Shown piece by piece: positions 25,828 to 28,686 of a stretch of 64,000 bases of DNA (positions within the stretch are counted from its first letter, which is position 1; every line of letters begins with the position of its first letter). The DNA comes from a virus: IMG/VR virus record IMGVR_UViG_3300037340_000044, positions 11,843 through 75,842 of that record. The stretch is one strand, 5' to 3'. Both the position numbers and the translations under genes were made by a program. Below the pieces are notes generated by a model. That model saw only the letters and a list, made by a program, of their open reading frames with translations, was not told the DNA's origin and did no database searches.

Positions 25828-28686
25828 ATGGGACGTTTCGGTTCGCGAAAGCGAGCCGCCGTGCTGCCATTCCTACAGAACCACCGGCCGACAGTCAATC
25901 GGCAGCCGAATCGGTTTCCGCAAGAGGAAAACCGCAACGGCTCGGCCACGTCCCGGTTCGCGCGCGTCGTCGGCGCCGTCCCCGGCCCAGACGCCGACTT
26001 CGCGTTGCCACACATCCTGCAATTCGGCGGCATCATCGGCGGCGCTTGGCGGACTTATTACCACGGCCAATACGACGAGGCGATGTACTTCTCGCGTGAG
26101 GACGCGCTAGCCATGCGCAACGATGCGTGGCTCATGTCGCTCATTGACGAACGCAAGCGAGCCGTAGCCACGCTCAAATGGCATGTCGAAGTCGATAACC
26201 CACGCGATCCGATACAGAAGGCGCTCGCGGACGGGCTGACGCAACTTTACAAGAACTTGCCGCGATACACAGACCTGACCATGAGCGGTCTGGAAGCGCT
26301 CTGGTTCGGGCGGGCGGGCGATCAATTCGATTGGGTGTACAAGAACGTACAGGTGCCCGCGATGCCGCGGCTGGCGTCGGCACCGGGCGTGCCGGCGAGC
26401 ATGGTTGCCAGCGAAGGCGAGTACGAGACGCGTAAGGTTCTGTGGATGCGGAACCACGAGCCGATCGAAGGCGACAAGATCGACTACGACTTCGACGGCA
26501 CGCCGTACATTCTCGTCAGCCCCATCGTGGCACTGAACACCTACCAGTCGGCAAACGCTGAATTCCGCCGCTATCACGACGGCCGGTGGCAGCGCGATGA
26601 CCAGCTACCGCCGCGACCGATGGTGCCGGACTTGAAGGCGGAACACGCTTCACTCGGGTTCACGACGATCGGCGGCAAAGCTCTATTTCTCAAGGGCAAC
26701 TGGCGGTCACGCTTCCGTATCCACAAGCATCAGTGCATCGATAGCAGCTACTGGCAGCCGTGGAAGGCTGGCAGCTTGTACGGCGTCGGCATTCGATCGG
26801 TGGTGTTCTGGTACTGGTGGCTCAGACAAGAATATCTCGCCAACATCACGGACTGGTGTGCGCGCACGGGACTCGGCATCAAACTCTGGTACTACGAACA
26901 GGGGAACAACGCGAGCAAGTCTGCAATATTGCAGGCCGCGAAAGACCAGAGCGACAAGGTGAACATCGCGGTTCCCTACGATCCGAACAACCCGAACCGG
27001 CCGGCAGTGGACATCGTGGAGATGGCAGGCACAGGGGCTGATCTTCTGTCTACGATCGTGAAGCACGTTGAGGAGTACATCGAAAGATATATCGTCGGCC
27101 AGAACATGACCGGGGGTAGCGACGACTTCTCCGCTGGTTTCGGCGACAAGGGCCGCAGCGAACTTGCGAGCCGCACGAACTGGCAGATTACGAAGCTGGA
27201 CGCTCGCAAGTTCGACGACACGAACACGACAGATATCCTGGATAATATCAAGCGATTCAGCTACCCGGAGTATGCAGAGATTCCGGCAAGGCTGGTCAGT
27301 GAGGTTGATGATCCGGACATCAAGAAATGGTCGGAAGGCGCAAAGGTGTTCGTGGAGATGGGCGGCGAGATCGTCGAAGATGAGGCCCGCGAGAAGCTGG
27401 GGCTGTCGAAGCCGCGGCCGACGGACACGACCATCGGCGGCGCGGCAGCCTTGCAGGCGCAGCAGGCCACGAGCGGGCACGTGAAGCCACCGGGAGACTT
27501 GGCGCCAGGCGGCGAGCAAGCAAACGGACAGGCGAATGACAAACCAAATCCGCTTGAGGGGGCAGTTGACACAGCGGACAGGCTGAAATTCAGTTGGGTA
27601 ACGATGGGCGGTCACGTCGATGGCGACAAGAAACACGTCGGCGGATTCCATGTCGAGGTTGACGAGAACGGCAAAATCCAGCGCGGCGGCACTCCCGAGA
27701 TGCACGGCAAGCCAATCCACGAAGCCATCGGAGCCCTTGAACGGGTAGACAAGGATCGCAAAAAGGCTGCCGAGAAAGAGAAGGAAGCTGAGCAAAAACC
27801 GGCCGAAAATCCGCCGGAAATTAATTCTGCAAATTTGCAGAATAAACCCGCCGCGCAGCCTGAAAAGCTTACAGACGAGCAGAAATCGCAGATGCTCGCC
27901 GACAACGAAGACCTGGCAATCGGCATGGCGTACAAGAAAGCCAAGCAGGGCTACGGCGAGGTGGACGATCTGGCCCAAGAAGCGAATATCGCCATGCTGC
28001 AAGCGGCGGACGCCTGGGATGAATCGAAGGGGCCGTTCAAGAACTTCGCCTCCCGAGCGATCAACAACAGGTTCACGGATATTCTGCGAGCGAAGCAACG
28101 CCGGCCGCAGCAGCAGATGCCAGAGAGCTTCGACGCAGAGCAGCCGCGTGCTGATACGCGCTCCGATGATTTGCATGCTGCCATCGCAAAGTTGCCAGAG
28201 GCGGAGCGCAGCATCATCGGCAAGCTTCTTGAAGGGCAAACTGTAGAGCAGATCGGCGAGGCTTTAGGGCAACATAAGAGTACAGTGAGCCGTGCTGCCA
28301 CCAAGGCGCGGGCTACGCTGAAAGAATTGCTGAGCAGTCAGTCATACGCGGAATTCGAGGAGAAGTTGCGATACGCCGACGGTCGCTCATCCGAGTACCG
28401 TCGCAGTCACAGCAAGACAGTCGAGCACGCCCTAGAGCGCTTGAGCGAGATTCCCGAGGACGCCACTGACGAGGAAGTGGAAGCGGTCATCGCGGCGATT
28501 GCCAAGCAGTTCACGGTGGACGAGTTGAAGGAACTGGCACGCGAGTACGGCGTGACGGGTTCGACCAAGGGTAAGCTGATCGACGGCTTGATCGAGAAGT
28601 GCGTCAAGGAGAAGGAAACCTACGAATCGCAGGAAGAAAAGGCGTACTATGACGAGTGCCGCGCCGCTCTGGAGAAATACCTATGA
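25828..28686 (+). CDS. portal protein (Mu gp29/DUF935-like) with C-terminal sigma-70 region 2+4 fusion
   Basis: Portal-like first ~540 aa (M..D......RK.AV, ALWFG, I...IVGQ..T, EAREKLGL); sigma region 2 (DDLAQEANIAMLQAADAWDESKGPFKNFASRAINN) and region 4 HTH (LPEAERSII..EGQTVEQIGEALGQHKSTVSR) at about 27862-28335; start may be GTG 25861. Confidence 0.82.
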   Translation: MGRFGSRKRAAVLPFLQNHRPTVNRQPNRFPQEENRNGSATSRFARVVGAVPGPDADFALPHILQFGGIIGGAWRTYYHGQYDEAMYFSREDALAMRNDAWLMSLIDERKRAVATLKWHVEVDNPRDPIQKALADGLTQLYKNLPRYTDLTMSGLEALWFGRAGDQFDWVYKNVQVPAMPRLASAPGVPASMVASEGEYETRKVLWMRNHEPIEGDKIDYDFDGTPYILVSPIVALNTYQSANAEFRRYHDGRWQRDDQLPPRPMVPDLKAEHASLGFTTIGGKALFLKGNWRSRFRIHKHQCIDSSYWQPWKAGSLYGVGIRSVVFWYWWLRQEYLANITDWCARTGLGIKLWYYEQGNNASKSAILQAAKDQSDKVNIAVPYDPNNPNRPAVDIVEMAGTGADLLSTIVKHVEEYIERYIVGQNMTGGSDDFSAGFGDKGRSELASRTNWQITKLDARKFDDTNTTDILDNIKRFSYPEYAEIPARLVSEVDDPDIKKWSEGAKVFVEMGGEIVEDEAREKLGLSKPRPTDTTIGGAAALQAQQATSGHVKPPGDLAPGGEQANGQANDKPNPLEGAVDTADRLKFSWVTMGGHVDGDKKHVGGFHVEVDENGKIQRGGTPEMHGKPIHEAIGALERVDKDRKKAAEKEKEAEQKPAENPPEINSANLQNKPAAQPEKLTDEQKSQMLADNEDLAIGMAYKKAKQGYGEVDDLAQEANIAMLQAADAWDESKGPFKNFASRAINNRFTDILRAKQRRPQQQMPESFDAEQPRADTRSDDLHAAIAKLPEAERSIIGKLLEGQTVEQIGEALGQHKSTVSRAATKARATLKELLSSQSYAEFEEKLRYADGRSSEYRRSHSKTVEHALERLSEIPEDATDEEVEAVIAAIAKQFTVDELKELAREYGVTGSTKGKLIDGLIEKCVKEKETYESQEEKAYYDECRAALEKYL

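Follow-up and report, generated by a model that had tools for sequence, protein, structure and literature searches.

What is a sigma factor doing at the end of a phage portal protein? The question arises from one gene on a 64,000-nucleotide stretch of DNA (the window; positions 11,843 to 75,842 of IMG/VR record IMGVR_UViG_3300037340_000044), taken from a linear 75.8-kb record estimated to be 78% complete. At window positions 25828 to 28686, on the plus strand, lies a single open frame of 952 codons plus a stop, in which this uncultured peat and permafrost phage joins a capsid portal protein and a complete sigma factor of the extracytoplasmic function (ECF) type in one chain. An earlier note on this DNA had reported the frame as uninterrupted and as holding both proteins; there is indeed no internal stop, and both halves score above curated hidden Markov model cut-offs. 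The combination suggests that the virus particle may carry its own transcription-start factor into the cell.

The N-terminal part of the protein (residues 1 to 555; 25828 to 27492) is a Mu-type portal core. Pfam Portal_Mu (PF06074) matches residues 254 to 526 with 107.7 bits against a cut-off of 23.9 (E value of 1e-30), the solved portal 8rka from the Protein Data Bank (PDB) matches with an E value of 3e-10, and the PHROGs profiles return a portal family (PHROG 113). The earlier note had recognized the core as Mu-type but had ended it near 27430, whereas in the alignment of relatives the conserved core reaches about residue 555 (nucleotide ~27492). This core is 58 to 81% identical to those of the relatives P0002 to P0005 and 44 to 47% identical to the portal of L003, a metagenome contig from a 51-kb record. 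By position, the gene belongs to a head-morphogenesis module whose gene order is colinear with that of L003.

The sigma factor lies in the C-terminal part, with sigma-70 region 2 at residues 687 to 760 (27886 to 28107, plus strand) and the region 4 helix-turn-helix at residues 779 to 835 (28162 to 28332, plus strand). Region 3 is absent, and about 20 residues join sigma2 to sigma4. Profile searches covering Sigma70_r2, Sigma70_r4 and the DUF935/portal family gave sigma as well as Portal_Mu matches above their cut-offs: Pfam Sigma70_r2 matches residues 692 to 759 (44.6 bits against 24; E value of 1.2e-11), Sigma70_r4_2 matches residues 780 to 831 (26.7 bits against 25.7) alongside the r4 profile, and the NCBIfam model for sigma70-ECF, TIGR02937, spans residues 687 to 835 (77.4 bits against 42.9). 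A PHROGs sigma family is also matched. Region 2 bears the ECF sigma signature DDLAQEA...F..FA.RA.NN..D.LR, and comparison column by column with the consensus of 84 ECF sigmas matched almost every position of regions 2.1 to 2.4 and 4.2. Mycobacterium tuberculosis SigE, for which holoenzyme structures are available, aligns over the whole length from region 2 through region 4 (E value of 5e-9), and the alignment is confined to that span.

Structure prediction gave the same answer. An AlphaFold2 model built from a 91-row alignment has predicted local distance difference test (pLDDT) scores of 96 to 98 for sigma2 and 95 to 98 for sigma4, with ~80 for the helical tail and ~70 for the small beta module described below. 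A model built from the single sequence was too poor (pLDDT of 50) and was set aside. The leading Foldseek matches of the alignment-based model are all sigma factors, both in the PDB (SigE, SigL, SigH, AlgU, SigW, and CnrH) and in BFVD, with M. tuberculosis SigE at their head. By sequence and fold criteria the module is a canonical ECF-type (group IV) sigma-70 factor, and the earlier note's reading of regions 2 and 4 with no region 3 holds. The intact sigma2 and sigma4 signatures suggest that the module would bind the RNA polymerase core and direct promoter-specific initiation. Nothing else in the 75.8-kb record matches Sigma70_r2.

Between the portal core and the sigma lie two linkers and a beta module, all on the plus strand. 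The first linker, rich in Pro, Gly and Gln (residues 556 to 585; 27493 to 27582), ends in DRLKF|S, where the bar marks a candidate cleavage or junction motif. It is followed by the beta module, 'SWVTMGGHVDGDKKHVGGFHVEVDENGKIQRGG' (residues ~586 to 624; 27583 to 27699), which forms beta strands in the AlphaFold2 model and matches P0007 by BLASTP with an E value of 6e-8. This module ('WVT..HVEVDENGKI') had been picked out in the earlier note and proves to be a real, conserved unit, common to the N termini of the free-standing sigma-cassette proteins P0007, P0011, and P0014; a search of the ESM Atlas with it gave no usable lead (best score, 0.84). The second linker (residues 625 to 686; 27700 to 27885) is charged and of low complexity, as judged from the sequence and the AlphaFold2 model.

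Downstream of the sigma, after LRY|A, the protein ends in a helical tail with a helix pair resembling SAP and HeH domains (residues 848 to 952; 28369 to 28683, plus strand). The tail domain is kept in P0003, P0007, P0008, P0011, P0014, and P0155. The earlier note had called the helix pair HeH-like, for which direct support is weak: the Ku70 SAP domain 1jjr is matched with an E value of 0.009, and Pfam SAP does not match the window protein itself. The corresponding tail of P0051, which matches Pfam SAP at 1.4e-6, lends indirect support. In eight cassette proteins an aromatic residue in the context [RKH][YF] stands ahead of every module, as in KNRY|GWITIGG, KQFY|VTDASGHEH, and KTRY|DYGPRH, and the window protein has DRLKF|SWVTMGG and EKLRY|ADGRSS at the corresponding places. 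We regard LKF|S and LRY|A as candidate cut sites, which could equally be parts of docking motifs.

Portals with and without the sigma can be compared directly. Only four long portal relatives were found among 5.8 billion clustered proteins. In one of them, P0003, the portal core shares 60% identity with that of the window protein and is followed by a linker, a sigma module with regions 2 and 4 above cut-off and the same helical tail; sigma and tail are colinear with those of the window protein at 32% identity over 244 residues (E value of 9e-27). After the tail come a coiled-coil and then a C-terminal segment common to the sigma-less portals P0002, P0004, and P0005. Because this portal segment resumes after the tail, the P0003 sigma lies inside the portal gene. 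The same kind of fusion that the earlier note had proposed looking for in related phages is thus present in P0003, and again in the P0035 family described below.

The portal cores fall into two sub-clades, one of the window protein and P0002 (81% identity) and one of P0003, P0004, and P0005 (76 to 80%), and in both sub-clades a single fused protein stands beside one or more without sigma. The fused cassettes are of different subtypes, for the window cassette is nearest to the free-standing P0007 (E value of 3e-24, and 6e-8 for the beta module) and the P0003 cassette to the free-standing P0008 (E value of 5e-42; 69% identity in the tail domain). Since, in addition, sigma-less portal cores reach 80 to 81% identity to each fused one, two or more separate fusions probably took place within this clade.

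Other collections returned no relatives: tblastn against INPHARED phages matched none, IMG/VR scans were empty whether the query was the portal alignment, P0007, P0035 or the cassette alignment, and a scan of genome contigs and an initial scan of metagenomes were empty too. When the sigma part by itself was used in a word-indexed search, only the window protein came back. As a separate observation on this clade, residues ~445 to 831 of P0005 form an intein-like insert of ~390 residues that interrupts the conserved portal core. It starts with a Cys after ..DFAQN, ends with ..TITGN before a T and contains a stretch resembling a helix-turn-helix, and its flanks align seamlessly with other portals.

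An exhaustive HMMER search with residues 660 to 952 against 1.84 billion representatives recovered the sigma and tail outside portals, and judged by these homologs the C-terminal extension is a mobile cassette. The free-standing P0007 (516 aa) consists of a leader, a beta module ('GWITIGGHEDEDGKHSGGTHVFI..G.ITKGP'), 'KSPDDLAKSLK' motifs, the sigma and a SAP-like tail, with 'RY|DYGPRH.PPKR.EGAVARLEAL' between sigma and tail; P0014 has the same build, and P0011 and P0021 have in addition a 2H phosphoesterase and the motif 'DASGHEH..GSPEGGQFTGK.EHGQSP'. Overall identity among the cassette homologs is 22 to 35%, and all of them keep the DDLxQEA motif of regions 2.1/2.2 and the signatures of regions 2.3/2.4. 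The cassette protein P0008 and the sigma-less portal P0004, whose longest contigs are both 75404, may be encoded separately on one phage.

This separate arrangement is seen directly in L003. The first gene of the shared stretch is a homolog (37% identity) of the window open reading frame (ORF) at 13786 to 15588 and stands just upstream of the portal; the second encodes a same-clade portal of 560 aa with no sigma; the third is a separate sigma-cassette gene of ~700 aa (P0155); the fourth encodes a KTSC-domain protein 38% identical to its window homolog; and the fifth is a homolog of the window's 501-aa ORF (34%), after which come further head-gene homologs (50 to 53%). In L003 the sigma cassette is a head-module gene directly downstream of the portal, and in the window it is joined to the portal.

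Linkage of portal and sigma also recurs independently, to judge from a second lineage. The 1,634-aa protein P0035 carries Portal_Mu, sigma regions 2 and 4, a weak GNAT match and Zeta_toxin, and its portal has no sequence-level relation to the window's portal clade. A search with its residues 1 to 720 brought out 33 long portal proteins that differ in their C-terminal cargo. In four of these (P0035, P0163, P0164, and P0165), regions 2 and 4 directly follow the portal and are themselves followed by Zeta toxin, ART-PolyVal, AAA_33 or ParB; one sigma fusion of this lineage had been automatically named 'RNA polymerase sigma factor' by the Joint Genome Institute. In the other portals of the lineage the cargo is 2H phosphoesterase, type IB topoisomerase, SNF2/methylase or ART. 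The cassette search also returned sigma modules in giant proteins, P0078 (2,948 aa), P0057 (2,812 aa), and P0029 (5,909 aa); P0078 has regions 2 and 4 and an ART-PolyVal match just under the Pfam cut-off (28.9 against 31.2 bits). A side observation in this lineage is that P0166, P0167, and P0175, relatives of P0035, join the portal to the catalytic domain of a eukaryotic-type DNA topoisomerase I (PF01028).

The window gene was also followed in Logan contigs from permafrost runs X1 and X3 and from peat run X2, which belongs to another study; they cover the gene with zero indels. One contig from X1, which may be the source sample, extends without indels between 27378 (residue 517, in the portal core) and 28759, inside the next gene, taking in the sigma and the stop codon; it covers 27400 to 27900, where the earlier note had proposed to confirm contiguity. 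One X2 contig covers 27520 to 28569 with no differences. Pieces of the gene are present as contigs in the peat metatranscriptome run X4, which is no demonstration of transcription. GC content at third codon positions is even along the whole frame. With the relatives described above also taken into account, we consider the fusion real and an assembly artifact very unlikely.

Within the gene, a search ahead of the sigma part found no in-frame Shine-Dalgarno start and no promoter-like site, so the sigma is probably made only as a fusion. The portal itself may start at the GTG at 25861 in place of the ATG at 25828, because the GTG aligns with Met1 of P0002, the closest portal relative, and the ATG sits just 8 nt past a -10-like TATACT. 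Two repeats touch the portal gene. A 33-nt hairpin leader at the portal start (25826 to 25858) recurs in other contigs of all four runs with both flanks unlike those in the window and is thus a repeated element common to another locus, in agreement with a remark in the earlier note on 20664 to 20703. About 120 nt within the portal core (26881 to 27001) are also found in short contigs with 7 to 8 differences, continuing there into unrelated sequence; these fit a second, diverged copy of part of the portal, located either at another place in this genome or in a relative.

What, then, could the extension do? Portal C termini face the capsid interior. Early phage transcription is known to be started in three ways: from host sigma-70 promoters, by an injected RNA polymerase (N4, phiKZ, AR9) or by way of an injected polymerase-modifying enzyme (T4 Alt). 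The earlier note had inferred that up to 12 sigma copies are packaged, cut free and ejected with the DNA to start early transcription. In line with this we propose, with a probability of roughly 0.5, that the complete ECF-type sigma and its SAP-like, DNA-binding tail ride inside the capsid as a C-terminal cargo of the portal, to be cleaved off, ejected and used to program host RNA polymerase. Twelve copies would enter the procapsid within the portal ring, with their extensions pointing inward as is established for portal C termini generally. A head protease, for which Mu gp29 offers a precedent, would sever the extension at the aromatic junctions ..LKF|S.. and ..LRY|A.., and the freed sigma would exit with the DNA. 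Given its intact sigma2 and sigma4 signatures, it could then bind the host RNA polymerase core and steer it to promoters of the phage at a time when no phage protein has yet been made. The fusion itself may have originated by the joining of the portal gene to an adjoining head-module sigma gene, still separate in relatives. Packaging and delivery is our leading reading because the cassette adjoins the portal in L003, portal fusions are repeated, the sigma is found within polyvalent proteins whose ART-PolyVal and Zeta-toxin domains are predicted to be injected, and a Mu-type portal loses its C terminus.

The closest known systems are the portal- and MuF-fused polyvalent proteins, which Iyer et al. 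(2017; PMC5512222) read as capsid-packaged, injected effectors. The portal fusions described there carry PBECR, 2H or InPase domains (for example, the portal-InPase BcepF1.124), and the word 'sigma' is not present in the main text. As in those proteins, the portal is extended C-terminally by a non-structural domain, in a late-gene context, and the cargo is predicted to be carried within the capsid and to reach the host; portal-2H forms as described there also occur in the P0035 lineage. The window protein differs from them in that its cargo is a sigma factor and no enzyme, and in that this cargo is, in the same clade, also a separate adjoining gene. The fusion architecture fits that family, and packaging and injection of the cargo are predicted here by analogy, as they are predicted for most family members.

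For cleavage, the precedent is the phage Mu portal gp29 (gpH), a member of the same Pfam family, Portal_Mu. Its last 124 residues are absent from virions, and their removal is attributed to head protease I (PMC11915804). In the text read, the removed segment has no described domain or function, whereas the window protein has a ~400-residue extension with a folded sigma. For delivery, T4 Alt and the virion polymerases of N4 and phiKZ are packaged and co-injected (PMC5512222, PMC13282480). With N4 virion RNA polymerase, the virion RNA polymerases of phiKZ and AR9, and T4 Alt, the proposed sigma would share the fate of a late-made protein that is packaged and co-injected for immediate early transcription (PMC4496689, PMC13282480, PMC5512222); they deliver a whole polymerase or a polymerase-modifying enzyme, whereas here only a specificity subunit for the host core would be delivered. 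Finally, free-standing phage ECF sigmas (PHROG 1740 and 351; the RpoE-like sigma24 of uncultured Caudovirales in BFVD) have the same sigma2-sigma4 fold and signature but are ~160 to 250 aa long, are not joined to a virion protein and lack the beta module and the SAP-like tail.

In the literature searched we met no report of a sigma that is packaged or fused to a portal, and the author of the earlier note likewise knew of no portal-sigma fusion. Portal-fused polyvalent cargo is already known; what is new is a sigma as that cargo, alternating between a separate head gene and a fusion. Extending the proposal, we tentatively suggest that a widespread, hitherto undescribed class of tailed phages packages a host-type sigma, either portal-fused or as a separate head protein with shared targeting and junction motifs, and injects it to redirect host RNA polymerase to early promoters, a generalization somewhat less likely to hold than to fail. 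If it is true, phages that inject a specificity subunit would have found a new and economical way to begin, adding a third strategy to the injection of polymerases and that of polymerase-modifying enzymes; sigma genes within the head-gene blocks of many uncultured phages would be explained, and portal C-terminal extensions would gain a defined function. The repeated independent portal-sigma fusions provide a clear experimental handle.

Several points weigh against packaging and delivery. The phage is uncultured and known here from sequence alone, and with the record ~78% complete, early genes may be missing. A head protease was not recognized among the window proteins by Pfam, PHROGs or PDB sequence search. 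Among the window's head proteins the aromatic junction motif shows no significant enrichment (best z of 2.7, with other proteins similar), so that the likeness the earlier note had seen between the motifs flanking the sigma and motifs of the scaffold is statistically weak and non-specific within this genome. A search for a repeated bipartite promoter motif found none, although this search was crude, covered poorly defined intergenic DNA and is uninformative either way. As for the joint itself, run X1, which bridges portal core and sigma, may be the source sample, and in the independent run X2 the pieces listed leave 27430 to 27519 unbridged; the comparative evidence is for these reasons the stronger argument against an artifact.

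An alternative is that the protein acts as a late sigma in the producing cell, its availability tied to head assembly, with no delivery to a further host. As long as it is free, portal-sigma would act on late promoters, and it would be withdrawn as portals enter procapsids, comparable to the FlgM/sigma-28 assembly checkpoint. The place of the gene within the late structural block, its status as the only Sigma70_r2 match of the record and its intact sigma signatures would all agree with such a role. It leaves unexplained, however, why the sigma recurs beside Zeta-toxin, ART-PolyVal, ParB and 2H domains, which are read as injected cargo (PMC5512222), and why the cassette proteins share a leader and junction motifs, and we consider it unlikely.

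Rather improbable, in our view, is a structural role in which the module stays in the capsid as a DNA-binding anchor that holds or organizes a genome end at the portal, as has been proposed for SPP1 gp7, a MuF-type protein, and plays no part with RNA polymerase. The extension does contain two DNA-binding elements, the helix-turn-helix of sigma4 and the SAP-like tail, its attachment point is the mouth of the portal channel on the inner side, and its cleavage is so far only proposed. A DNA clamp would nevertheless need neither the core-binding DDLxQEA motif nor the region 2.3/2.4 signatures, which persist in all cassette homologs at identities as low as those given above.

The sigma might also be ejected as a decoy that competes with host sigmas for core polymerase or titrates a host anti-sigma, so that its effect would be to silence host transcription or stress responses and not to read promoters of the phage. 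Its companions in the P0035 lineage are host-directed enzymes (Zeta-toxin kinase, ART, and GNAT-like), and the absence of a phage promoter motif would suit a decoy, but the promoter search was too crude to serve as negative evidence, and the DNA-recognition patterns of regions 2.4 and 4.2 are kept as well as the core-binding parts, which makes this possibility distinctly improbable. That sequencing or assembly error merged two adjacent genes, as the separate portal and sigma genes of L003 and the metagenomic origin of the record might suggest, is scarcely credible given the absence of indels in contigs from four runs and three studies, the single contig running from portal-core residue 517 into the next gene, the independently fused P0003 and P0035 family and the even third-position GC.

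Returning to the window, the head module continues downstream of the fusion on the plus strand. A translationally coupled gene for a 154-aa protein (28683 to 29147) begins with an ATG that overlaps the portal stop as ATGA (28683 to 28686), with GGAGAA 8 nt upstream. The end of its product, 'EMEIIKDKDGKITGVRRK', shows a weak likeness to the extreme C termini of sigma-less portals ('..VKDKNGKFTATPKFD' and '..RKDKDGQYTAEVQ'; BLASTP to P0002 with an E value of 0.03, a hint only), and the same end also resembles the second hairpin of the fusion's beta module. The next gene (29383 to 30060) encodes a 225-aa protein that starts MKSPRELMRSLRQRVRY|ADASGHEH..PEGGQFT, a motif repeated in sigma-cassette proteins and in the P0003 linker, and that matches the C terminus of P0008 (BLASTP E value of 2.6e-15). 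It is followed by the KTSC-domain gene (30067 to 30903; Pfam KTSC at 0.0019), which is syntenic with the gene after the L003 sigma cassette (KTSC at 2.4e-6; 38% identity by tblastn). The rest of the module, ORFs of 501, 142, and 370 aa between 31969 and 35073, is colinear with L003 at 34 to 53% identity. From their position these ORFs may have scaffold/protease and capsid roles; the searches that recognized no protease among the window proteins recognized no scaffold or capsid protein either.

The motif at the start of the 225-aa protein belongs to a longer one of ~35 residues, 'Y|A.DA.GHEH..G.PEGGQFTGK.EHGQSP.DMA..L', which occurs in up to three copies per protein at the domain borders of head-module proteins. 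We find it in the window at 29383 to 29460, at residues ~585 to 610 of P0003 and in P0008, P0011, P0021, and P0155. 'KSPDELAKSLK' motifs accompany it, and a docking, cleavage or recombination joint is conceivable.

Comparison with L003 also brought out differences upstream of the portal. Relative to L003:4468-8692, about 10 kb parts the ORF at 13786 to 15588 from the portal in the window (13786 to 25801). This intervening region holds glycan and methylation genes; it encodes a B12/radical-SAM enzyme, a metallophosphoesterase and a GT9 glycosyltransferase, along with others, and it resembles an inserted modification island. In L003 itself, the region 4034 to 4465 encodes a protein with an Acb2/Tad1 hairpin domain, of the anti-CBASS/anti-Thoeris sponge family (Pfam 2.2e-8), which adjoins the packaging genes, and the region 19892 to 21571, after the head-tail genes, encodes a protein in which an ART-PolyVal domain is strongly matched (1.9e-37). 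Farther along the window lies a single tRNA gene, a tRNA-Thr (TGT) at 60612 to 60686.

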